Positions 10,851 through 61,009 of a stretch of DNA of 64,000 nucleotides are shown here, piece by piece. A model generated the notes under the pieces. That model was not told where the DNA came from. It made no database searches and was given only the letters and a program-made list of their open reading frames with translations. Source of the stretch: Candidatus Omnitrophota bacterium. Lineage in GTDB: Bacteria > Omnitrophota > Gorgyraeia > Duberdicusellales > Duberdicusellaceae. The stretch is taken from positions 1,332-65,331 of the forward strand of contig JAGGSQ010000069.1 of assembly GCA_021159015.1 (NCBI GenBank). Direction: 5' to 3'. The first letter of the stretch is position 1, and each line of letters opens with the position of its first letter. The position numbers and the translations under genes are program-made.

Positions 10851-10882
10851 AAATTATGGCAGATGCTGGTTGTTAAAGAAAA

Positions 10883-10954
10883 GCCCGCGAGAGGATTTGA
10901 ACCTCCGACCTGAGCATTACGAATGCCCTGCTCTCCCAACTGAGCTACGCGGGC
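10883..10954 (-). tRNA. tRNA-Thr (anticodon CGU)
   Basis: Reverse complement is GCCCGCGTAGCTCAGTTGGGAGAGCAGGGCATTCGTAATGCTCAGGTCGGAGGTTCAAATCCTCTCGCGGGC. It has a 7-bp acceptor stem, a D-arm TAGCTCAGTTGGGAGAGC, anticodon loop TTCGTAA and a T-loop TTCAAAT. Confidence 0.8.
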
Positions 10955-25743: not shown

Positions 25744-27207
25744 TCAGAAACCAAACCAGCCCTCAACTGGAGAGGGGCCGTTTCCTATACCAATATGTTT
25801 AATGTGGCAAAATTCGAAAAACCCCGCTGGCCCCAAAACTCTGGCCCAGCCACTTTGTTTCATACCTCCAAAAGGAGTAGCAGGAGACATCTCGGCAAAA
25901 GTATTTATCCAGACTGTGCCTGCCTGAGCTTTACGGGCTAAGTTTTCTGCCTGCGCCAGATCTGCGGTCCAGATTTGAAGAGTAAGGCCAGAGGGATTCT
26001 TCTCCAAAATTTCTTCCGCCTCTTCTGCTTCAAAACTCTTAATCATCAATACAGGAGCAAAGAACTCTTCCCATACCAACTCTCTCAACTCCAGTAAAGT
26101 GGGCAAATAAAAATTAGTCCCTTCCACCCTCCTGCCTCCGCTTATAATTTTAGCCTGAGCCTCCCCTACTAGTCTCTTTACTTTCTTATCCACTTCTTCC
26201 AGATAAGAAGAACTAATCAGCGCCGCCAGATTAGCAGAAGGATCCTGGGGATCACCTAAATGTATTTTTTCTACTTTTTCCTTTAGCATTGTTTTTACCT
26301 GAGAAAAGACTTCTTCTTCTATAAGCAAAAGACTAACCCCAATACATATTTGCCCCTGTTTCATAAACGCTGCCGCCAATATATTATCAACTGCTCTTTC
26401 TAAATGAGCCGATTTGAAAATAAACCCTACATTGCACCCTCCCAGTTCACAGATAATCTTCTTAGGGTGAGAGGCACTTTCCCGATATACCTGCATAAAA
26501 GTTTTGCGGCTGCCGGTAAAAGAAAGAATATCCACCTCACTCTGAGCTAAAGCCTTTCCTATCTTTTCCCCTCTTCCGCTGACTATATTAATAAGACCGG
26601 GCGGCAAATCAAGCTTGTCCAGAAATTGAGCCAGTTTAAGAAGGGAAAGGCTGGCAAATTCCGAAGGTTTTACAATTACAGCATTCCCTGCGGCCAGTGC
26701 GGCGGCTACACTAAATCCAAAAATCATCAGAGGCACATTGTAAGGAAGAATTATGCCTGCTACGCCATAAGGCTCATAAGTAAAAATATCCCACCCCTTT
26801 TGAGAAGCAGGAGAAACCACAGAAAGTGATTCTAAAAAAGAGGCATAGTATTTAAAACAATCAGCGGCCAGAGGGACATCAACAAAGAGAGATTCTTTCA
26901 TAATTTTACCCACATCTTTACTCTCTATTTCGGCAAGAAGGGAAAGATTATCCAGAATAGTCTCTCCTATCTGTCGCAAAGTTTGTGCCCGCGCAGAAAA
27001 AGGCGTATTTCTCCAAATGGCCAGGGCTTGGCGCGATTTCTCTAAAGCAAAAGCCAGGTCGCGCGCTTCTGTCTCAAACATATACCCTAATACTTCCCTC
27101 TTCGCCGCTGCCTCACAAACAAGCCTATTGTTACTCTTCCTAAATTCCCCTCCTACATAGTAGAGATATTCCTCCATAAAACCTCCTGCTGTTTTAGCCT
27201 TCGACAT
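25744..27207 (-). CDS. NAD(P)-dependent aldehyde dehydrogenase
   Basis: ALDH catalytic Cys in QGQICIGVS. Glu in ELGGCN. GSRKTF/SGRGEKIG NAD-binding region. 487 aa. Confidence 0.85.
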   Translation of the reverse strand: MSKAKTAGGFMEEYLYYVGGEFRKSNNRLVCEAAAKREVLGYMFETEARDLAFALEKSRQALAIWRNTPFSARAQTLRQIGETILDNLSLLAEIESKDVGKIMKESLFVDVPLAADCFKYYASFLESLSVVSPASQKGWDIFTYEPYGVAGIILPYNVPLMIFGFSVAAALAAGNAVIVKPSEFASLSLLKLAQFLDKLDLPPGLINIVSGRGEKIGKALAQSEVDILSFTGSRKTFMQVYRESASHPKKIICELGGCNVGFIFKSAHLERAVDNILAAAFMKQGQICIGVSLLLIEEEVFSQVKTMLKEKVEKIHLGDPQDPSANLAALISSSYLEEVDKKVKRLVGEAQAKIISGGRRVEGTNFYLPTLLELRELVWEEFFAPVLMIKSFEAEEAEEILEKNPSGLTLQIWTADLAQAENLARKAQAGTVWINTFAEMSPATPFGGMKQSGWARVLGPAGFFEFCHIKHIGIGNGPSPVEGWFGF

Positions 27208-27304: not shown

Positions 27305-28705
27305 TTAAAAAGTATACTTCAACTCGCAGACAATCTGATTGTTATTGCGATACTGGCCGTTAGAACCATAAGCCGGACCCCAAAAGTGATGATAGCCTAA
27401 GGTAAGCCAGAGATTATCCCGCATCTCAAACTTAGTCTTAAAAGAGACCCGTCCGTCGTTGTCGTCGCCATAAATTATCAGCACTTCCGGCTTAATCCTC
27501 TCATATACAAAGTCTGTGGCTACCTTAAGGGTAACGTAGCTTTCTACTTTATCCATAAGCCCGTAAGTATAAGAACTCAGAGCGTGTTTGCCTTTAAAGG
27601 TAGGGTTGTTATGAATAAACTGGGCAAACTGCAGAGAGAAAAGCCAGTTTGTAAAGTAATATTTATCAAATCCTAATACATAGGTATATTTGTCACTTCT
27701 TTCGGTGTAACTTCTGTGCCCCTGGCTGCCATAATAAGTAGGCTCATTACGCAAGTAAGCAAATTCTCCTCTCAACGTCAACCCTTTCAGGAGGCCGGCG
27801 TTGGTAAAAGACTTGTTGAAAGAAAAACCGATGAGCTGCATTAGCTTGTGCCGGCGGGAATAATAATAATTACCCTTAGGCATACCTAAGGCGGGAATCA
27901 GACCGCCGGTAATTACTACACCATCGGAATAGGTATAAGCACTGGTAGAATAACCATAAAGCCAGTTGAGAGTGTAGTCTATGCCGGCAAATATAGAACG
28001 CCAGCGCAGACCAACTCGCGAATTTTTCAGTTTAGAAGAAGGCCGGTAAATCGCCGTACTCATACTGCCGCCGGCGGCTTCCATAATGCTTTTTACCGTA
28101 TCAAAATCATTCACTGCTTTGAAAGCAAAGGTATCGCCGGCCTTAGCCGAACGCGAAGCTTCAAAGTCAGGAATCAAGAGAAACTGTAAAGTGGAATTCA
28201 GCCAGGGCGAATACTCCACCTTAATCATCCACAAAGGGATTCTGATATCGGCAAAGTCGGGCAGCCAGTAGCGGGTCAAATCAAAAGGCATAACCCGGTC
28301 TAAAAAAGGCAGGCCGTCGGCCTGGCCCCAAACAACTTGCTGTTTGCCAATTCTCACATCCAGCTGGTCTGAAATATAATCCAGGTAGCAGTCGCGCAGC
28401 CATTCTGTTCTCTGCGTAGTGCCGGCTTTTTCCTGATTTCTGTCAAACGCCCCCTCTCTTATGCCGTAGGCAAAATCGTAAAAATAGCGCGGATGCACAA
28501 AGAGAGTCCATTCGTCTGAGATGCGGTATTGCGCTTCTAAATCAAGCGTATTGCGGAAAGATGAAAGGAACTGATGAGAGTTGTCATTGTTAGTCTGGAC
28601 CCATACTTCGGTTTTAACATAGCTGGAATATTCAAAATTATTGCCGGTTTGAGCCGCCAGAACAGATAAAGGAAATAAAAAACAGAAAAGTAATAGCTTC
28701 TTCAT
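27305..28705 (-). CDS. outer-membrane beta-barrel protein (DUF1302-like)
   Basis: Signal peptide MKKLLLFCFLFPLSVLAAQT. Aromatic-rich with alternating hydrophobic pattern. C-terminal ...CELKYTF, ending in the terminal Phe typical of OMPs. Confidence 0.6.
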   Translation of the reverse strand: MKKLLLFCFLFPLSVLAAQTGNNFEYSSYVKTEVWVQTNNDNSHQFLSSFRNTLDLEAQYRISDEWTLFVHPRYFYDFAYGIREGAFDRNQEKAGTTQRTEWLRDCYLDYISDQLDVRIGKQQVVWGQADGLPFLDRVMPFDLTRYWLPDFADIRIPLWMIKVEYSPWLNSTLQFLLIPDFEASRSAKAGDTFAFKAVNDFDTVKSIMEAAGGSMSTAIYRPSSKLKNSRVGLRWRSIFAGIDYTLNWLYGYSTSAYTYSDGVVITGGLIPALGMPKGNYYYSRRHKLMQLIGFSFNKSFTNAGLLKGLTLRGEFAYLRNEPTYYGSQGHRSYTERSDKYTYVLGFDKYYFTNWLFSLQFAQFIHNNPTFKGKHALSSYTYGLMDKVESYVTLKVATDFVYERIKPEVLIIYGDDNDGRVSFKTKFEMRDNLWLTLGYHHFWGPAYGSNGQYRNNNQIVCELKYTF

Positions 28706-28720
28706 TTTCTTACCTCCTTT

Positions 28721-29599
28721 TTACCAGCGGGAACGCATTAAGGCTTTTACGGTAAAATTATATTCACTAACCCCCTGGTCGTACTTTGTATCTTTCATCA
28801 AAATATCAGTGCGGTGGCCGGTCCGCAAATCTTTACACTCTAAAGACATCTGAGCAGGATATTTCTTATCGCCGGCTTTAGTCCAGACCCATTCCCGAAA
28901 AAGCGTCTTAAACAGCTTCCCGTTTTTATCGTAATACTCCTCAAAAATGCCGCCGCCGGTATCTTTATCTATCCACACCTTTCTTTTGGCATAATACCAG
29001 TGCGGCCTTTGGGGATAGCATTCTATAATAAAACACGGCTTGCCGGCGAGTTTAGTTTCTCCTGTTGCTTCAAACTTGTAGCCTTTAAAATTTTCTTCCC
29101 CAACTAATTTATAACTTTCATCTTCAAAACGGCGGGTAGACACCTCTTCTACGGTCATATCCGAGCCCAGAAAAGCATCGTCATTCTGAGAAGCAGAAAT
29201 CTTTCTTACCTTCTTAAGGGAAGGCAGCCAGAGCCAGACATCCTGCTCTCTTTTGGCATCTTCATAAGTCCAAGTTAGAACCGCTAATCCTTTAAGCGCT
29301 GTAGGGTAAGTAAAAGCTACGATATCTTTGTAAGAAATTCCCTCCTGACCTCCTTTTATCATCCGCATTCTTTTCCATATTCGTTTGCGCGTAAATCCAC
29401 TGCGGTCTACATATAAAACCTCCCCTATCTGCATATAATCACGGGCGAAAAAGGAATATTTGTTGTAGTAGGCAATGCGCATAATCTCATCGGCACTCAT
29501 TCCCTCCTGCGGTCGGTAAACTTTATAGTATTCCAGATTGGCCGCAAAAACTAAACTGCCAGCAAACAGCATTCCCCACAAAAGTCCTAGTTTTTTCAC
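28721..29599 (-). CDS. LolA-like outer-membrane lipoprotein-sorting / lipid-carrier protein (DUF1329-like)
   Basis: WLWLPSLKKVRKISASQNDDAFLGSDMTVEEV is characteristic of the LolA-like proteins encoded next to MMPL exporters. The likely start is the GTG (VKKLGLLWGMLFAGSLVFAANL signal peptide) at 29599, overlapping the MMPL stop. The ORF track extends the start to 29704. Confidence 0.6.
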   Translation of the reverse strand: MKKLGLLWGMLFAGSLVFAANLEYYKVYRPQEGMSADEIMRIAYYNKYSFFARDYMQIGEVLYVDRSGFTRKRIWKRMRMIKGGQEGISYKDIVAFTYPTALKGLAVLTWTYEDAKREQDVWLWLPSLKKVRKISASQNDDAFLGSDMTVEEVSTRRFEDESYKLVGEENFKGYKFEATGETKLAGKPCFIIECYPQRPHWYYAKRKVWIDKDTGGGIFEEYYDKNGKLFKTLFREWVWTKAGDKKYPAQMSLECKDLRTGHRTDILMKDTKYDQGVSEYNFTVKALMRSRW

Positions 29600-32046
29600 A
29601 CTCCACCTCCTGTTTTGAAAAAACTTACTTTTCTTCCCCGTCTCTCTACCCCCTTTTTTAATCTTCTCTTTACTCTTCCCCACAAAAAGGCCGGCTTTAG
29701 CCACCAGACCAGCAACGGAACCATTACTAAGGAGATAACCATATTAAGCACCAAGGACAGGCACAAAATTATCCCCAGCTTTGCCTGAAAGAGAATAGGA
29801 GAAAAAACCCATACCAGTATCCCCAGAGAAACTACTGCCCCACTGAAAAATACCGCTTTGCCGCTGGTAATCAAAGTATAATGGAGTATATCCTTATAAG
29901 TATGACGTTTCTGGCGCATCTCATCATACAAACGAGCCAGAATATAAATGCCGTAATTAATCCCCAGCCCTTCGCTTAAAGAGACCAGGGGAAGAATCTC
30001 GGTGGTAATAGAAATCCCCAGAAATCCCAAAAGAGAAAAAATAACTAAGTTGCTAAGAACAAGAGGCAGAAGCAGAAACCAGCCGGCAGTAAAAGAGCGG
30101 TAAATAAAGCTGACATAAAAGAAAATTAAAAGAGAGATAAAGAGAGCATTGGGAAGAATAGTTTTTTTAATGATATCGTTTATGGCATAGAAAATGCCAA
30201 TGTCTCCCCCCGCATAGAGAAATTTTATATCCTTGAATTTATGCTTTTGAAAGTACTGATGCGTTTTCTCCACCGCTAAATTTACCGTAGTTGATTTATG
30301 GTCGCGGAAATCAAATTTAATATTGCAGGATTTCTCGTCGCGGCTGATTAGATGGTCATAATCAGAGGGAAATCCCGAAAGCGTATAAAGAAACCAGTAT
30401 TGGGCAATAACATCGTCTTGGGAAGGAATTTTAAAATATTCTCTCTTGCCAGCAAACATAAACATATTTAAAGCTTTGACTGCATCTACCACGGACAAAG
30501 ACGATCCGACTTGTAGCACCTGCTGCTGGAGATACCTCTGAAAACTATCGATAGCCCTTAATTTATCAGCTTTAAGCAAAGAAGAGGAGGATTTTGCTAG
30601 AATATAGTAGGAATTTGTTCCTCCGAAATTGTCGTTAATAAATTTCTCGGCCCGGTTATAAGGGCTGTGGGGATAAAGATAACTTGAGCCTTCTGTATTG
30701 TCGCCAATAACTATTTTTTTTATCCCTCCCAGAGAAAGCAGGCCGGCAATAATGAAACCCGTAATTAAAATTGTGCCGGCTCTCTTATTCAAAGAGAAAA
30801 TACTTATCTTCGCCAGCATCCTATCTACCCACAGATGCCGTTCTTCTCTTTCCACGGCCAATATTTTAGGCCGGTGCAAAAATGACAAAACACAAGGCGT
30901 AAACATAAAGGAAGTGAAGAAGTTGGCGAAAATGCCCAGCCCGCTGGCCAGAGCCATACTTTTTATGGTAGAAAGAGGCACCATTACCAAAGATAAAAAC
31001 CCGAACCCGTCTGTAAATACACAGGCGAGCCCCGGCAGAAACAAATAGGCCATGGTATTTACTATAGCGTGCTTGCTTTTCATTTTAGGGCTGCGCATTT
31101 CCTCATAATAACGCTTAAGTGTGTGCACAGAATGGCTGATACCTAAAGAAAGAACAATAAAGGGCACCAAGATTGTAGCCGGGTCAAGCCGCAGGCCTAG
31201 AAGTTTCATTGTTCCCATACCCCAGATAGTAGCCATAGAAGAATCTAAAAGAGGCAGGAGTATGCCGCGGCGGGAACGAAAGGTAAAAAACAGAATAAGG
31301 GAAATCACCAGCATACTTACTGCCAATACCTTAAACATAGAAGGAAGGTAAAAATTAAGCCAGCCTTCTAAAATAGGACGGCCGGCAATATAAATCTCGG
31401 TGTTTTTGTCTTCATATTTTTTCTTCAACTTCTGCAAAGTAGAGAATATATAGCTGGTTTTTACTCCCGAATTAAAATCTACCTGGATAAAAGTGGACCG
31501 GAAATCACGCGAGACCATTTTGCCGTAAACATTGGGGTTAATCTCAATTTTTCTTTTCAATTCCTCCCTGCCTCTTTCGTCCTGAGGCGGATAACGCAAA
31601 AGGCGTTCTACAAAAAAACCCTCTTCGTCAGCTACAATATGTTTTATATGGCGGCTGGCTAAAGAATAAACGCGGCTGATATTTACACCCTTAACCAAAT
31701 ACAAATCTTCCGTTAAAGATATCAGCTTATCCAAAAACTTAGCATTAAGAATTGTCCCTTCCTTAACCCGCAGGGCCAAAGATACCTGGTTAAGGCCGCC
31801 GAAGATATGCGTAAGCTGGTGCTGCACTTCTACAAAGGGATGTTTCTGAGGCAGGAAATCTTCCAGGTGTGTTTCTACCTTTATCGTACCTAACACACTA
31901 AGAAAAAATACTGTTAACGCTGTGCAAGCTATAATGATATATATCCGCAGATGCACTATCCTGCGTGCCAGTCTATACTGCCAGCTACTGGTTAGACCTC
32001 TGCTTTCGCCTGAAGCATACTTTATTCTACCGGTGCCTGCTCCCAT
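29596..32046 (-). CDS. MMPL/RND-superfamily exporter (HpnN-like putative lipid exporter)
   Basis: 816 aa with two blocks of ~6 TM helices separated by large periplasmic domains, as in MMPL/SSD-type RND pumps. The start overlaps the upstream aldolase gene by 25 nt. Confidence 0.75.
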   Translation of the reverse strand: MGAGTGRIKYASGESRGLTSSWQYRLARRIVHLRIYIIIACTALTVFFLSVLGTIKVETHLEDFLPQKHPFVEVQHQLTHIFGGLNQVSLALRVKEGTILNAKFLDKLISLTEDLYLVKGVNISRVYSLASRHIKHIVADEEGFFVERLLRYPPQDERGREELKRKIEINPNVYGKMVSRDFRSTFIQVDFNSGVKTSYIFSTLQKLKKKYEDKNTEIYIAGRPILEGWLNFYLPSMFKVLAVSMLVISLILFFTFRSRRGILLPLLDSSMATIWGMGTMKLLGLRLDPATILVPFIVLSLGISHSVHTLKRYYEEMRSPKMKSKHAIVNTMAYLFLPGLACVFTDGFGFLSLVMVPLSTIKSMALASGLGIFANFFTSFMFTPCVLSFLHRPKILAVEREERHLWVDRMLAKISIFSLNKRAGTILITGFIIAGLLSLGGIKKIVIGDNTEGSSYLYPHSPYNRAEKFINDNFGGTNSYYILAKSSSSLLKADKLRAIDSFQRYLQQQVLQVGSSLSVVDAVKALNMFMFAGKREYFKIPSQDDVIAQYWFLYTLSGFPSDYDHLISRDEKSCNIKFDFRDHKSTTVNLAVEKTHQYFQKHKFKDIKFLYAGGDIGIFYAINDIIKKTILPNALFISLLIFFYVSFIYRSFTAGWFLLLPLVLSNLVIFSLLGFLGISITTEILPLVSLSEGLGINYGIYILARLYDEMRQKRHTYKDILHYTLITSGKAVFFSGAVVSLGILVWVFSPILFQAKLGIILCLSLVLNMVISLVMVPLLVWWLKPAFLWGRVKRRLKKGVERRGRKVSFFKTGGGV

Positions 32047-33008
32047 AATTTGAAAGTCCTTACTAATACCGGATACCAGCGGCTCATCTTAGTAAAATCA
32101 CCTTTAGTCTTTACCTTGCCTTGCGTAGAGGCGACAAAAGCATCCAGCTTGCGGTTGAAAACTTTTTTTAATATATCCGCGCGGCCAATGATTAAGAAAT
32201 CCACCCCTTCTGCTTCCTCGCTTACCTTAACTATGCGCCCAGCCTGGTAATGAAAGCAAACTGCCCTGCCGCTATCCTGGTCTTTAACCGCCAGCCGGCA
32301 GGTCAAATCATATTTCCTTCCCAGCTCCTGGGCCTGAGGGTCATTGTTAACCAATTCCGCCAGTTTAGCTATATGCGCGGGTGAAAGCAGTTTGTACTTC
32401 TTTAACGATCCCGGCTCCTGAGGCAGCTCTCTATCCGCGGCCAAAGCGGTGCGGGACTGAGATTTCAGAATCAGGTTTATTTTTGCCTGCTCCTCTAAAA
32501 GTTCAATGAGGCTGAACGCTTCTTTGAAATCCTGGCCTATGCTTACCACCCCGTGCTGTCCTAAAACTACTATATTGGAATCAGCCAGCGCCTCTAAAAC
32601 CGGTGCAATATGGGTAACCGTAGGAGTCTCCTGAGGAACAACTTTTATTTCTCCCAAATAAAATTTCGCCTCAAAAGAAAATATGTCCAGCCTGCCAAAA
32701 TAATGAAAAAAGGCTACTGTATAAGGAGAATGCGAATGCAGGACGACTTTGACGTGAGGGAATTTACTATGTATGCCTAAATGCAAACCCTTCTCGCTGG
32801 TAGCTTCTCCTTTTCCCTCCAAAACATTGCCCTTGCTGTCAACCATAAGAATATCTTCATAAGAAAGCTCTCCCAAATAACAGTCGTGAGAAGTTATAAG
32901 AATACCTTCGTCTACTTTTAAAGAAATATTGCCGCTTCTGGCGCTAACTAAACCCCGTTCATTCAGGCGGCGGGCCCAATAGATTATTTGTTCTTTTTGC
33001 TTATCCAT
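32022..33008 (-). CDS. class II aldolase/adducin-fold protein fused to a C-terminal SCP2-like sterol/lipid-carrier domain (Ald2/DrdA-like)
   Basis: N-terminal half has RRLNERGLVSARSGNISLK and the HSHSPY metal-binding histidines of class II aldolases. C-terminal ~110 aa (DFLIIGRADILKKVFNRKLDAFVASTQGKVKTKGDFTKM) resembles SCP2. I placed the start at MDKQKEQ (ATG 33008). Confidence 0.65.
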   Translation of the reverse strand: MDKQKEQIIYWARRLNERGLVSARSGNISLKVDEGILITSHDCYLGELSYEDILMVDSKGNVLEGKGEATSEKGLHLGIHSKFPHVKVVLHSHSPYTVAFFHYFGRLDIFSFEAKFYLGEIKVVPQETPTVTHIAPVLEALADSNIVVLGQHGVVSIGQDFKEAFSLIELLEEQAKINLILKSQSRTALAADRELPQEPGSLKKYKLLSPAHIAKLAELVNNDPQAQELGRKYDLTCRLAVKDQDSGRAVCFHYQAGRIVKVSEEAEGVDFLIIGRADILKKVFNRKLDAFVASTQGKVKTKGDFTKMSRWYPVLVRTFKLWEQAPVE

Positions 33009-33486
33009 CTCCTTCCTCCTTAATGAGATCAAGCCGAGGCTTCTCGACCTCCCCCAGAAGACTTTCTGCATACATAGGACGTCCGGCTAAAGTAGAAGCA
33101 TCACTATCAGAAAATTTATCTAAATCCAGCTCTGTCCCTGCTGCAAATTTCACATCCACATTGTGATATTTAGCTAATTCATATACATACAAAGAACTAC
33201 TTAAACACAAATATCCATCGTCCATCTTCTTCTGATAAAGAATCAGAAGCTCCTTTATTTTTTGCTGGTAAAAAAGATGCCCCAGCATATTATCAGTACA
33301 ATATAAAAATTCTAAACCAGCAGCAGATAAAGCATCTCTATTCCATCCCAGTCCCAATAAATACGGCCGCAACTCAGGATTTACCAATACGAACCCCCTA
33401 TGAAATTTCTCTTTCAAATAAATAACGGCCTCTTCAGACAAAATTCCCCAAAACAAAACAGCTTTTTTTATATTCGTTATTTCCAT
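33001..33486 (-). CDS. truncated eIF2B/MtnA-like paralog (C-terminal Rossmann-like half only; catalytic motifs absent)
   Basis: ALSAAGLEFLYCTDNMLGHLF...IKELLILYQKKMDDGYLCLSSSLYVYELAKYHNVDVKFAAGTELD parallels the GADR...NKIGTY...VPFYVAA region of MtnA, but lacks the GADR Asp and the upstream CN(T)G Cys. 161 aa. Confidence 0.5.
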   Translation of the reverse strand: MEITNIKKAVLFWGILSEEAVIYLKEKFHRGFVLVNPELRPYLLGLGWNRDALSAAGLEFLYCTDNMLGHLFYQQKIKELLILYQKKMDDGYLCLSSSLYVYELAKYHNVDVKFAAGTELDLDKFSDSDASTLAGRPMYAESLLGEVEKPRLDLIKEEGDG

Positions 33487-36697: not shown

Positions 36698-38254
36698 TCA
36701 GTTTTTTATTCGGTTTTCTGCCATATGCTTCAATCTGCCTTCAGCAATCTTGCCGCTGCGCGTCTTGGGAAGCTCTTTCACAAACTCAAAGTAATGGGGG
36801 ATTTTAAAATGCGCCAGCTTCTTCTTCAAAAATTCTCTTAATTCTTCCTCTTTGACTTCTGTATCTTCTTTACTTACTATAAATACTTTGGGCACTTCTC
36901 CCCGCAAGCGGTCAGAAACACCCACAGCGGCACACTCCTGCACCGCCGGATGCTCGGACAAAGCTTTCTCTATCTCCCACAAAAAAACTATCTCTCCTCC
37001 TACTTTCAGCATCTGCTTCTTCCTTCCGGCAATGTAATAAAATCCTTTCTCATCTCTGTAGGCTAAATCGCCGGTGCGAAAAAAACCCTCTGGCGTAAAA
37101 GAGGCTTCATTTAAAGAGGGATTTTTATAATAGCCTTTGAATACGGCTTTGCCTCTGATTAACAACTCACCTACCTCGCCTTCTTTCACCTCCTCTCCTT
37201 CCTCATTAACAAGTTTTACTTCTACATCGGGCGAAGACACGCCGATACTCTCGATATTAGCAGAATCGGGCGGCGTAACAATGTTAGGAGGAGAAGTTTC
37301 GGTCATCCCCCAACCGTTGAGAAGTTTTGCCTGTGGACAAAGTTTGTGGAATTTCTTAAGCAAGCGCGGCGAAGAGGGAGCGCCAAAAACGACTACATAC
37401 CTCAAGGTTTTTAGATTAAATCCCTCCAAATCTTTAAGGGTAAACAGCGCTACATACATAGAAGGCACTATCCAGAAAAAGGTAATCTTAAATTGCTCAA
37501 TATTCTTAAGGAACTGGCGGGGAGCAAATCTTTCCATTAACACAACCTGCAGACCAAAATATACCATTAACAGAAAATACACCCATCCCCCTGCATGAGA
37601 AAGAGGAATAGCACAAAGAACATTATCGTTCTCATTGATATCGGAAAGGAAATACTTTACTTGCCGCGGCGAATACTCAAGATTGTCGTAAGTAATAACT
37701 ACGGCTTTAGGCTGGCCGGTGGTTCCGGAAGTATAAGAAATTATAGCCTCCTCACCCCGAGCATTGTCTATAAAGGCTCCTGCCTTTTCCTCTGCCCCGT
37801 TCTTTATCAGCTGAGAAAAACTCAAAAAATCACCCTCCCGAGTTTCTTGTGTTTCATCAACTAACACTATCTTCACCCCTGTATCTCTCTCCAGCCTGTC
37901 ATAATTTATATTGATACGCCTCCTGGCAATAAGGATATCTACCTGGGCGTGTTTCAAAATGCTTATTAATTCCTCCTCGCTCAACATAAAATCAAGCGGC
38001 ACAGCACAAAAGTGCAAAGAGAATATAGCCGTGTAGGCTACTATATACTCCCAGCTATTGGGAAGAAATATACCTATGCGTGCCGGTTGGCAAGGAGTTA
38101 ATTCCCAAAGGCCTGCCGCACACTTAAGGCCTAATTGGTGCAGCTGGCCAAAGGTTATTTTTTTCTCTCCTGAAATAAGAGCCACCTTATCAGGGAATAA
38201 TTTACTCTTATTTTTTAGAAGAAGAGTAAAATTAAAGATTTTTCTCTCTTCCAT
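36698..38254 (-). CDS. AMP-dependent acyl-CoA synthetase/ligase (adenylate-forming enzyme)
   Basis: YTSGTTGQPKAVV (AMP-binding P-loop), GWGMTETS, FRTGDLAY and PKTRSGKI motifs. 518 aa. Confidence 0.85.
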   Translation of the reverse strand: MEERKIFNFTLLLKNKSKLFPDKVALISGEKKITFGQLHQLGLKCAAGLWELTPCQPARIGIFLPNSWEYIVAYTAIFSLHFCAVPLDFMLSEEELISILKHAQVDILIARRRININYDRLERDTGVKIVLVDETQETREGDFLSFSQLIKNGAEEKAGAFIDNARGEEAIISYTSGTTGQPKAVVITYDNLEYSPRQVKYFLSDINENDNVLCAIPLSHAGGWVYFLLMVYFGLQVVLMERFAPRQFLKNIEQFKITFFWIVPSMYVALFTLKDLEGFNLKTLRYVVVFGAPSSPRLLKKFHKLCPQAKLLNGWGMTETSPPNIVTPPDSANIESIGVSSPDVEVKLVNEEGEEVKEGEVGELLIRGKAVFKGYYKNPSLNEASFTPEGFFRTGDLAYRDEKGFYYIAGRKKQMLKVGGEIVFLWEIEKALSEHPAVQECAAVGVSDRLRGEVPKVFIVSKEDTEVKEEELREFLKKKLAHFKIPHYFEFVKELPKTRSGKIAEGRLKHMAENRIKN

Positions 38255-38332: not shown

Positions 38333-38551
38333 TTATTTACGCGCTATATCTTGAATATTTAAGGCAATATTAATAAGGATAGAGGTTACACCCAAAATAA
38401 ATACACTTTTAGGAGTGACACTGGTTAAACCTAAATTGTAGTTGATACTCCATAATTTCAAAATAACGCTGGTAACAATAAGGATAAAACCCACGCTTAA
38501 GAAAAAATCTTCGAAAACGCGGTAATAATTTTTAAAACTCCCGCTTTCCAC
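38333..38551 (-). CDS. small 2-TM membrane protein (72 aa), paralog 1
   Basis: GTG start preceded by GGAGGCGAGG. Shares FEDFFLxxGFxLIxxSVxxxL...LGxTxVTxK..F......L.N..LNIQ with the adjacent ORF. Confidence 0.55.
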   Translation of the reverse strand: MESGSFKNYYRVFEDFFLSVGFILIVTSVILKLWSINYNLGLTSVTPKSVFILGVTSILINIALNIQDIARK

Positions 38552-38573: not shown

Positions 38574-38786
38574 TTATACTTTATAAAAGGCCTTCACTAA
38601 ATTCTGGATATTGAGGGACAAATTAAAAAGTAAACAGGTGATAGCTGCCGCAAATATATCTTTAGCCGTAACGGTTGTAAAACCTAAATCATATTCCACA
38701 CCCAATAGCCGCATAGCTACGCTGGCAATTACTAATACAAAACCTGCTCCTAAAAAGAAATCTTCGAATAATTTATATTCTTTCAT
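38574..38786 (-). CDS. small 2-TM membrane protein (71 aa), paralog 2
   Basis: I placed the start at MKEYKLFEDFF (ATG 38786), preceded by GGGGGAGG. The ORF-track extension would overlap the divergent nfeD gene. ~45% identical to paralog 1. Confidence 0.55.
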   Translation of the reverse strand: MKEYKLFEDFFLGAGFVLVIASVAMRLLGVEYDLGFTTVTAKDIFAAAITCLLFNLSLNIQNLVKAFYKV

Positions 38787-38796
38787 CCTCCCCCTT

Positions 38797-38826
38797 TTTA
38801 CTAAAACAGCTTTTTTAGAATATAAT
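38797..38826 (+). promoter_or_regulatory. putative promoter of the nfeD-stomatin operon (TTTACT-18-TATAAT)
   Basis: Consensus -10 TATAAT at 38821-38826. Weak -35 TTTACT 18 nt upstream. About 57 nt upstream of the ATG at 38884. Confidence 0.35.
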
Positions 38827-38883
38827 AAAACCCTTAACCTGTCAACTGAAATTTTAAAGGGAAGCAATTTGACAGCTAAAAAA

Positions 38884-40209
38884 ATGGCAGCTATAATGAG
38901 AACGATGAAAAATTGGTACATAAAGCTTGGGGTAGGAGTTTTCTTTCTTCTTAGCCCCTCCTTTCTATTTGCCTCAACTCTTAATGTCTTAACTATAAAG
39001 GGGCTAATAATAAATCCGGTAATACAGGAATACATAGAAGAAGGTATAAGAAAAACCGAACAAATCCAGGGCTATCTCTTAATTCGCATTGATACGCCGG
39101 GCGGACTGCTGAAGCCTACAGAAAATATTGTAAAAATGCTCCTTAATGCCAGAGTGCCCGTAATATGTTATGTTTGGCCGCAAGGAGCCAGAGCTGCTTC
39201 GGCGGGTAGCTTTATTGCTTACGCCGGTAATATCCTGGCTATGGCCCCTAATACCCACATTGGAGCAGCTCATCCTGTAATAGGAGGAGGGCGCTGGGAA
39301 GAGATAGGAAAGACTTTGCAAGAGAAAATTACTAACGATACCTTAGCTTTGGCCCGTAATATCGCTCACGCGCGCTCGCGCCCTTACTCCTTTATTAAAA
39401 AGACGATAAAAGAAAGCCTTTCTTTTACAGCAGAAGAAGCTAAAGCCCAGAAAGCGGTAGATTTTATTGCCTCTAATCTGAAGGAATTACTAAGAGATAT
39501 CAATAACTTTCATATAGTATTAGAAGGAGACAGAACTATCGTATTGCATACTAAAGATATAGATATAAACTATATAACCTTTAGCCCGCGGCAAAAATTT
39601 TTAAATGCTATAACTGACCCTAACATTGCCTATTTATTATTTAGCTTAGGATTTTTAGCACTACTATTTGAAATAACCCATCCCGGTTTCGGCCTGGCGG
39701 GAGTAAGCGGGATTATCGCCTTACTGCTTGCTTTCTATGCCTTTCAGATTTTACCTACTAATTATACAGGTTTGGCGTTAGTAGGAGTAGGTATAATTTT
39801 TCTCATCGCGGAAGCTTTTACACCCACGTTTGGGCTACTTACAGGAGCAGGATTAATCTGTTTTATCCTGGGATCAGTTATGCTTTTTCCCCATTCTAAG
39901 ATTATACATCTATCACTAAAAACCATTATTCCTTTAGCCGTTTTAGCCTTTATCTGGACTAATTTTATCCTGGTAAAACTAATTCAGACAAGAAAACAAA
40001 GACCTCTCAACGGGAAAGAAGCTCTGGTAGGAAAAATTGGCACCGCCAAGACAAATATTTTGCGCCACGGCAAAGTGAATGTAGAAGGTGAAACCTGGAA
40101 TGCTAAAAGCAGTCGTTTAATTAAAGCTGGTGCGGAAGTAGTGATTAAAAAAGTGGAAGGGCTTAGGTTAATAGTAGAACCACTTATGGTAACAAAAAAG
40201 GAGGAGTGA
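38884..40209 (+). CDS. NfeD-family membrane-bound ClpP-class serine protease (long form, with C-terminal OB-fold)
   Basis: [47 protein letters not shown] is ClpP/NfeD-like. Followed by multiple TMs and a C-terminal beta domain. I placed the start at [11 protein letters not shown] (38884; alternatives 38899/38905). The ORF-track start at 38611 overlaps the divergent gene. Confidence 0.8.
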
Positions 40210-60838: not shown

Positions 60839-60913
60839 TAGCCCCAACGGGATTTGAACCCGTGTCTGATGGCTGAGAACCACCTGTCCTAGGCCGGGCT
60901 AGACGATGGGGCC
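60839..60913 (-). tRNA. tRNA-Glu (anticodon CUC)
   Basis: Reverse complement is GGCCCCATCGTCTAGCCCGGCCTAGGACAGGTGGTTCTCAGCCATCAGACACGGGTTCAAATCCCGTTGGGGCT. TCGTCTAG...AGGAC is the Glu-type D-arm. Anticodon loop TTCTCAG. Followed by CTTTTTCT. Confidence 0.75.
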
Positions 60914-60927
60914 ACAAGAAAAGACTT

Positions 60928-61009
60928 TGCCGGGAGAGGGATTTGAACCCTCACGCCTTGCGGCATACGCCCCTCAAACGTATGTGTCTGCCAATTCCAC
61001 CATCCCGGC
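60928..61009 (-). tRNA. tRNA-Leu (anticodon GAG), class II with a long variable arm
   Basis: Reverse complement is GCCGGGATGGTGGAATTGGCAGACACATACGTTTGAGGGGCGTATGCCGCAAGGCGTGAGGGTTCAAATCCCTCTCCCGGCA. 7-bp acceptor stem, anticodon loop TTGAGGG, a 14-nt variable arm and T-loop TTCAAAT. Confidence 0.75.

Follow-up and report, generated by a model that had tools for sequence, protein, structure and literature searches.

A half-size, predicted non-catalytic MtnA-like protein is a likely partner of a full-length isomerase in an operon of Candidatus Omnitrophota

We analysed a stretch of 64,000 nucleotides (hereafter the window) from a Candidatus Omnitrophota bacterium (GenBank assembly GCA_021159015.1, contig JAGGSQ010000069.1, positions 1,332 to 65,331), and in particular a short open reading frame (ORF) within it that we call ORF161. 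ORF161 is part of a tightly packed operon on the minus strand that codes, in order, for a ligase, a radical SAM enzyme, a nucleoside phosphorylase, an MtnA-like isomerase, the ORF161 product, an aldolase with an SCP2 domain, a set of MMPL, DUF1329 and DUF1302 proteins and an aldehyde dehydrogenase (Table 1). The exact protein is present in GenBank as MCD6135036.1, a 'hypothetical protein' of a Candidatus Omnitrophota metagenome-assembled genome (MAG). An original prediction, made from the DNA letters alone, held that the ORF is a truncated paralogue of the neighbouring isomerase that has lost its catalytic residues and may serve as a non-catalytic partner subunit. The ORF itself is real, with a length of 161 amino acids on the minus strand.

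The ATG of ORF161 sits 10 nt within the 3' end of the upstream isomerase gene, in the -1 frame relative to it, an arrangement that is consistent with translational coupling. At its other end ORF161 overlaps the aldolase gene by 8 nt, and this overlap is preceded by the Shine-Dalgarno-like run GGAGGAAGGAG. The figure of 8 nt holds if the aldolase starts at ATG 33008, which is the start chosen by gene callers on five near-identical contigs (L001-L005); the resulting N-terminus, MDKQKEQ, is kept as MDKQKEQ or MDKEKEQ in two diverged orthologues (L006 and L007). We therefore regard a start at 33071, which would give the longest ORF and an overlap of 71 nt with ORF161, as an over-extension. The predicted overlaps of 8-10 nt with both neighbours were thus borne out.

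In single-sequence comparison the relationship between ORF161 and the isomerase is marginal and visible over a short region. BLASTP aligned amino acids 38-81 of ORF161 with 171-214 of the isomerase (27% identity over 44 residues, E 3e-4 for this single comparison), and the sequence scored 10.6 bits against the Pfam family IF-2B (PF01008), for which the threshold is 22.4, with the match in the right place of the profile (positions 123-216 of 280). NCBIfam gave no match for ORF161, a phmmer search of the PDB returned spurious Fab matches only (E 2) and a word-indexed homologue search found only four close relatives. An exhaustive profile search, however, recovered a family of 69 representatives at 50% clustering that are mostly stand-alone proteins of 145-170 amino acids and are recognisable down to approximately 27% identity; PF01008 matches are precomputed for many of its members, and neither Pfam nor NCBIfam has a model for the family. 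A profile of 44 stand-alone members (alignment A2) matched the A. fulgidus MtnA-like protein 1t5o (E 4.4e-13), T. maritima MtnA 1t9k (E 3.9e-9), eIF2B-beta (E 1.7e-6), B. subtilis MtnA 2yvk (E 7.6e-6) and ribose-1,5-bisphosphate isomerase (R15Pi; E 6e-5) in the PDB. When the family was aligned to the clade of its partner isomerases with hhalign, residues 31-119 of the ORF paired with 164-253 of the isomerase (97.8% probability, E 8e-13), and a glocal run widened the alignment to 1-161 against 126-300.

From these alignment ranges we conclude that ORF161 spans the C-terminal Rossmann-like domain (CTD) in full, though its 'arm' is somewhat shorter, and contains nothing else. It does not have the two-domain architecture of IF-2B proteins, being 161 amino acids long as against 317-370 for full-length members, and the N-terminal helical domain is absent. 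The prediction that similarity would be confined to the C-terminal half of the isomerase therefore holds, and at the profile level the match to the eIF2B/MtnA fold is significant. The accompanying proposal of a half-duplication stands insofar as ORF161 is a CTD-only paralogue, but has to be refined with regard to age. Identity between ORF161 and the isomerase is only about 19% in the profile alignment, so the duplication is ancient, and the family scores 52 bits against the archaeal MtnA 1t5o but only 23-43 bits against the partner isomerases. On these figures we reject a recent duplication of the neighbouring gene.

The catalytic and ligand residues of the fold have been described for P. horikoshii R15Pi (PH0208), where Cys135 and Asp204 are catalytic, Arg22, Arg65, Gln166 and Lys215 bind the 1-phosphate and Asp204, Asn214 and Lys215 bind the sugar (PMC5789824). 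The isomerase of the window has R50, R87, C145, Q177, D218, N228 and K229, which are invariant throughout its clade, and since MtnA structures are matched at E 2e-33 we predict it to be active. The core of the hhalign alignment, which is of high confidence, places G216-A217-D218-R219 of the isomerase opposite L83-Y84-Q85-K86 of ORF161, in agreement with the earlier observation that LYQKKM stands in place of GADR, while Q177 (the Gln of RPYLQG) lies opposite L44 and N228/K229 (the Asn-Lys of INKVGTY) opposite C94/L95. The column of the catalytic Asp (Q85) is variable in the ORF161 family and none of the catalytic or ligand columns is conserved there. The two ligand Arg residues of the N-domain are absent because that domain is missing.

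The original prediction had also assigned the catalytic Cys to the missing N-terminal domain. The domain is indeed absent, but the CTD of P. horikoshii R15Pi comprises residues 123-324 and hence includes Cys135 (PMC5789824). The catalytic Cys of the family lies just past the first strand of the CTD, and in the isomerase of the window it is C145 in 'LTICN'. In the N-terminal extension of the alignment, which is of low confidence, 'LTICN' stands opposite 'L-FWG' of ORF161, so that C145 faces W13. Across the ORF161 family this column holds W, Y, F or H, and there is no conserved Cys anywhere within the N-terminal 30 residues. As the catalytic Cys belongs to the CTD and its position is covered by ORF161 as W13, it appears to have been lost by substitution and not by truncation. 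We conclude, on the basis of these alignments, that ORF161 cannot be an isomerase by the known mechanism.

Two orthologues of ORF161, of 76% and 70% identity, come from short metagenome contigs on which the flanking genes are the same. With these orthologues we obtained dN/dS values of 0.13, 0.16 and 0.18 at a dS of approximately 1.0-1.3, and the flanking isomerase fragments gave approximately 0.10-0.14. These values, together with the family of 69 representatives, point to purifying selection on ORF161 as a protein, and they exclude a chance ORF. It had been proposed that the gene is not a decaying pseudogene or the 3' remnant of a longer gene, and this is supported by dN/dS values similar to those of the flanks and by the presence of its own conserved start in 43 species genomes. 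Across related clusters the ORF161 family diverges faster than its partner (27-42% as against 48-54% identity).

With an alignment of the partner-isomerase clade as query, a scan of GTDB at one genome per species found 303 genomes, and we analysed the best 80 loci by searching their stop-to-stop ORFs with hidden Markov models of the isomerase and of the ORF161-type domain (pseudo-domain). It can be seen that the pseudo-domain is present in all 79 loci that could be assessed, the remaining one of the 80 running off the contig edge, and there is no locus without it among these 79. It is encoded by the adjacent downstream gene in 41 loci, by a gene nearby (1.6-2.6 kb) in 2, and is fused in frame to the C-terminus of the isomerase in 36. 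The hosts are annotated as Omnitrophota, Planctomycetia, Deferribacterales, Desulfofervidaceae, Syntrophobacter, Binatia, Verrucomicrobiia and 'Deltaproteobacteria' MAGs. The start of the short gene overlaps the stop of the isomerase in 31 of the 43 split loci, by 4 nt in 15 of them. Distant members (33-39% identity) have a constant gene order of B12-radical SAM enzyme, PNP_UDP_1 phosphorylase, isomerase (281-301 amino acids), short gene (154-156 amino acids), aldolase(-SCP2) and aldehyde dehydrogenase. The ORF is thus retained in syntenic clusters, and strict co-occurrence with the catalytic paralogue goes together with purifying selection.

Gene order differs in a few loci. A radical SAM gene lies between the isomerase and the short gene in L024 (2289-6240) and 2.6 kb separate the two in L052 (5977-11126), while in L038 and L043 (5974-10525) radical SAM and phosphorylase genes lie between the short gene and the aldolase. 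Two loci with longer members of 181-186 amino acids, L013 and L014, were left out of the synteny comparison as their contigs carry visibly fragmented genes; their neighbours look split, with H_PPase and the aldolase each in two pieces, and these loci are probably indel-ridden long-read assemblies of fused-type loci.

The fusions were characterised separately. Four of the 50%-cluster representatives (467-511 amino acids) consist of a full isomerase followed by the pseudo-domain, and a search with an alignment of the fusions found at least 120 further fusion proteins of approximately 500 amino acids which, where named, are called 'methylthioribose-1-phosphate isomerase'. The E, R, P and G of the ExRP region are invariant in 121 fusion sequences, and the invariant set in the fused domain is E, R, P, G, D and G. 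The fused form, found in Binatia and Deltaproteobacteria MAGs (for example P0155 and P0038), shares with the window the same two components, their order, the operon context and the invariant residues, and differs in being one polypeptide as opposed to two overlapping genes. The isomerase part of the fused forms is 38-44% identical to that of the window, except for P0038 at 52%. P0038 is encoded on six contigs in the same operon context, and the C-terminus of the window isomerase followed by the N-terminus of ORF161 is colinear with its linker, with zero difference in length. A neighbour-joining tree of the isomerase domains indicates at least two independent transitions between the fused and the split state. 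Natural fusions of this kind provide a Rosetta-stone signal that the isomerase and ORF161 products act together. At the P0038 locus (L016, 1-8008) the fused isomerase is directly downstream of molybdenum-cofactor genes, including that of the radical SAM protein MoaA, and another B12-radical SAM gene is also found upstream of it, so that the salvage module is again beside producers of 5'-deoxyadenosine.

AlphaFold2 modelling of ORF161 alone from a five-sequence alignment was unusable (pLDDT 45.6). We therefore modelled the window isomerase concatenated with ORF161 (478 amino acids), using the 120 natural fusions as the alignment. The mean pLDDT of this model was 89.8 with a pTM of 0.90, and only the junction at 312-322 fell below 50. 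The ORF161 part (pLDDT approximately 90) consists of strands (E) and helices (H) in the succession E326-330, H335-345, E350-354, H362-372, E377-380, H382-390, E394-405/408-411, H415-424 and E428-433. This order parallels that of the isomerase CTD (E138-143 through E246-249) and is Rossmann-like, in agreement with the profile alignments. The closest structures to the concatenation are 2yvk, 6a34 and 1t9k (MtnA), at E of approximately 1e-23. The pTM of 0.90 for a body of 317 + 161 residues suggests that the second domain is confidently placed in the model.

Conservation in the ORF161 family appears to fall on a part of the fold that is used for dimerisation elsewhere. Members of the eIF2B/MtnA fold family are known to oligomerise only via the CTDs: the canonical homodimers of aIF2B, R15Pi and M1Pi are held together by CTD helices a9 and a10 and the arm, and eIF2B beta and delta form the same canonical dimer as a heterodimer (PMC4787765). 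In the CTD-mediated dimer of P. horikoshii R15Pi there are inter-subunit salt bridges between Arg162 and Glu160 (PMC5789824). R15Pi Gln166 is the Q of ETRPxxQ, and Thr161, Arg162, Lys164 and Gln166 have been described as one loop (PMC6423476), so that Glu160 and Arg162 supply the E and R of ExRP. Their counterparts in the ORF161 family, E38 and R40, are invariant along with P41 and G45, while the neighbouring ligand Gln is lost; taken more widely, E38, R40, P41, D65, N66 and H108 are invariant or nearly so. The best-conserved segments of the family, 65-73 (DNMLGxLFY) and 97-108 (GSLYxxLLxxxH), would be the helices after strands 3 and 5, which we equate with a9 and a10.

The dihydroxyacetone phosphate (DHAP) shunt, or 5-deoxyribose disposal, is defined by adjacent genes for a nucleoside phosphorylase or kinase, an isomerase of the MtnA family and a class II aldolase; it converts 5'-deoxyadenosine or 5'-methylthioadenosine (MTA) to DHAP and acetaldehyde or methylthioacetaldehyde (PMC6079011, PMC10986504). 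PNP_UDP_1, IF-2B and Aldolase_II genes are found in one overlapping operon in the window and, judged from domain families and synteny, this operon looks like one for DHAP-shunt-type salvage of 5'-deoxynucleosides. 5'-Deoxyadenosine could plausibly come from the B12-radical SAM enzyme. The phosphorylase gene, which is conserved upstream of the isomerase and whose product matches the NCBIfam DeoD-type model below its cut-off, is predicted to carry out the first step, from a 5'-deoxynucleoside to the sugar-1-phosphate and base. The isomerase belongs to a divergent clade with the signature MKTRAFGQ and scores below the NCBIfam cut-offs for MtnA; its predicted substrate is 5-deoxyribose-1-phosphate or methylthioribose-1-phosphate. 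The aldolase is predicted to act in the shunt on 5-deoxyribulose-1-phosphate or methylthioribulose-1-phosphate, and the aldehyde dehydrogenase to oxidise the aldehyde product. The latter is encoded directly after the aldolase in most relatives, while in the window the MMPL/DUF1329/DUF1302 set intervenes. An AMP-binding ligase gene is directly downstream of the aldolase in fused-type loci, and the dehydrogenase and ligase together could carry the aldehyde on to an acyl-CoA.

Taking these results together, we consider it likely, with a probability of roughly 0.75, that ORF161 is a catalytically dead CTD that has been kept as an obligate non-catalytic companion of one clade of MtnA-like isomerases. 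That the ORF161 product is a non-catalytic partner physically associated with the isomerase, as was originally suggested, appears as likely as this or slightly more so, in view of the 120 or more fusion proteins, the fusions at 36 of 80 loci and the colinearity with P0038. In the mechanism that we propose, ORF161 would be translated with the isomerase from the same mRNA by coupling and would bind it stoichiometrically. The dead CTD would then sit on the isomerase at the CTD-CTD interface of the canonical dimer. [quoted passage not shown] Isomerisation by this complex would be one step in a series of phosphorylase, isomerase, aldolase and then aldehyde dehydrogenase or acyl-CoA ligase, which would salvage 5'-deoxyadenosine or MTA, the byproduct coming from the adjacent B12-radical SAM enzyme. 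The geometry at the canonical interface is the more tentative part of this proposal; it follows from the invariant E38 and R40 and from the best-conserved segments mapping to a9 and a10, and we give it somewhat under an even chance.

Several observations weigh against this interpretation. Mean-field direct-coupling analysis of 202 paired sequences (effective number of sequences 127 at 80% identity and 32 at 62%) gave scattered inter-domain pairs only, which we put down to phylogenetic noise. Since the ExRP loop doubles as the floor of the active site, the fold alone could explain why it is conserved. The short gene of L024 and L052 has remained beside the aldolase and not the isomerase, which fits an aldolase-related role equally well. 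Finally, the pathway has been assigned from domain families and synteny, and both the isomerase and the phosphorylase fall below the NCBIfam equivalog cut-offs.

A potential explanation that would accommodate the aldolase is that the dead CTD is an adaptor or scaffold which bridges the isomerase to the SCP2-tagged aldolase and so channels the labile ketose-1-phosphate, a role that would be compatible with that of isomerase partner. The gene lies between those of the isomerase and aldolase and overlaps both, most of the 79 loci have an aldolase-SCP2 fusion after the pseudo-domain, and the short gene of L024 and L052, though parted from the isomerase, is directly upstream of the aldolase. However, two loci (L087 and L090) keep a fused pseudo-domain with an aldolase that has no SCP2 domain, two others (L029 and L039) retain the pair of isomerase and short gene with no aldolase within the 12-kb locus, and in L038 and L043 the short gene is with the isomerase and the aldolase further downstream. 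As there was also no fusion of the domain to an aldolase in the loci examined, we think a scaffold quite unlikely.

We regard it as less likely still that the domain is an allosteric sensor that controls the isomerase in response to a bound small molecule (a sugar phosphate, a nucleoside or AMP). Such a function could account for the residues that are invariant or nearly so, and there is precedent in sugar-phosphate-bound eIF2B (the title of PDB 7kmf; eIF2B-alpha) and in AMP bound between R15Pi protomers at the CTD interfaces (PMC5789824), but the canonical pocket is gone, ORF161 having no N-domain and none of the Gln, Asn and Lys ligands. A new enzyme activity using the retained E38, R40, D65, N66 and H108 is highly improbable: the family does have several invariant polar residues, but the operon already covers every step of the shunt, the retained residues are a subset of the motifs common to all family members, which suggests roles in the fold or in an interface, and the ORF161 family diverges faster than its partner. 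Least credible of all is that ORF161 is the decaying remnant of a broken fused gene, or that a fusion is made by programmed frameshifting across the 10-nt overlap, since, despite the existence of fused versions, the colinearity of the split pair with P0038 and the -1 frame of ORF161, the low dN/dS, the occurrence of the split state in 43 species genomes, where the short gene invariably has an ATG or GTG start of its own and a conserved N-terminus, junctions that range from 23-nt overlaps to 83-nt gaps and so have no conserved slippery site, and the fact that no canonical X XXY YYZ heptamer is seen in the overlap lead us to reject both.

The companion domain has partial parallels among known systems. 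Like the C-terminal Rossmann-like domain of the 5-methylthioribose-1-phosphate isomerase MtnA/M1Pi (PDB 2yvk, 1t9k and 1t5o) and of the 5-deoxyribose-1-phosphate isomerase DrdI (PMC6079011), to which it is homologous, ORF161 has the motifs ExRP..G, (T)DN and H-x-(V/I)-P as well as the beta-alpha order, and like the DHAP-shunt and drd genes it is found in a phosphorylase-isomerase-aldolase cluster. It differs in having no N-terminal helical domain and in the replacement of the catalytic Cys and Asp, the ligand Gln and the Asn-Lys pair. The eIF2B beta/delta heterodimer and the regulatory eIF2B subunits (PMC4787765) are also non-catalytic members of the same fold family in which diverged paralogues pair CTD to CTD, but those subunits have both domains and control translation in eukaryotes, whereas ORF161 is bacterial and CTD-only, and would pair with a metabolic enzyme that is still catalytic and encoded beside it. 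That a dead paralogue is kept as a partner is a well-known principle, and the eIF2B/MtnA fold family is known for heteromers. In trypanosomatids, the catalytically dead 'prozyme' paralogue of S-adenosylmethionine decarboxylase forms a heterodimer with the active paralogue, which needs it. The logic proposed here is the same, but the fold is unrelated, ORF161 retains half of its parent protein and activation is in this case a proposal. Full-text literature searches, for which the literature covered was incomplete, found nothing on half-size, truncated, fused, extended or tandem MtnA.

An extension of the companion role would be that the dead half-domain is an obligatory activator, the isomerase clade no longer forming homodimers and needing the domain on its canonical interface to support the ExRP floor, and that it may also tether the SCP2-tagged aldolase so that intermediates are channelled within one complex. 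We offer this as an unlikely speculation; if true, it would be a bacterial 'prozyme'-like system and a living bacterial example of how catalytic MtnA- or R15Pi-type enzymes became eIF2B-like subunits that are non-catalytic and form heteromers. The eIF2B/MtnA fold family provides a textbook case of the passage from enzyme to regulatory subunit, and a bacterial pair of a catalytic and a dead paralogue that occurs both split and fused is a simple system in which to study it. Descriptions of the DHAP shunt and of 5-deoxyribose disposal name three stand-alone enzymes, and the clade studied here, which occurs in at least 303 species-level genomes of several phyla, mostly uncultured, carries a fourth component. 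Current annotation hides this component as a 'hypothetical protein' or as part of an over-long 'MtnA', which a dedicated family model would correct. Heterologous expression of the isomerase alone would fail or mislead should its activity or assembly depend on the dead domain.

Table 1. Genes of the ORF161 operon and their overlaps, in window coordinates.
Feature	Position	Strand	Basis
AMP-binding (acyl/acetyl-CoA synthetase-like) enzyme, 518 aa, operon head	36698..38254	-	Pfam AMP-binding 1e-78
B12-binding radical SAM enzyme, 490 aa	35214..36686	-	Pfam B12-binding + Radical_SAM; kept in related loci
PNP_UDP_1 (DeoD-like) nucleoside phosphorylase, 246 aa	34423..35163	-	Pfam 5e-33
MtnA-like isomerase, 317 aa	33477..34430	-	Pfam IF-2B 7e-38; PDB 1t9k 2e-33, 2yvk 2e-31
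Overlap of isomerase stop and ORF161 start, 10 nt, ATGGAAATAA	33477..33486	-	sequence
ORF161, 161 aa; predicted catalytically dead, stand-alone IF-2B/MtnA C-terminal Rossmann-like domain	33001..33486	-	ORF, family profile, hhalign, dN/dS
Overlap of ORF161 stop and aldolase start, 8 nt, ATGGATAA	33001..33008	-	sequence, gene calls, conserved N-termini
Class II aldolase with C-terminal SCP2 domain, 328 aa	32022..33008	-	Pfam Aldolase_II 3e-36, SCP2 5e-6
MMPL/RND-like transporter	29596-32046	-	
DUF1329/TP_0789-like protein	28721-29704	-	
DUF1302 protein	27305-28705	-	
Aldehyde dehydrogenase	25744..27207	-	ORF; Pfam Aldedh on near-identical contig L001; synteny

Some further features of the operon and window were noted. 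The SCP2 domain of the aldolase is sterol-carrier-like, and the loci that have an aldolase without it, L087 and L090, are both from Binatia; no paper on an aldolase-SCP2 fusion was found in the same incomplete literature. Taken with the AMP-binding ligase and the B12-radical SAM enzyme, the MMPL/DUF1329/DUF1302 insert is a hint that the salvage genes serve a pathway with a lipid or hydrophobic product. In the window, Rfam matches above the gathering score were limited to three tRNA genes (10882-10954, 60839-60913 and 60928-61009, all on the minus strand). Two tandem paralogous small membrane proteins are encoded at 38333-38551 and 38574-39035, also on the minus strand; they have no Pfam family on the near-identical contig and are 42% identical over 71 amino acids (E 2e-22).

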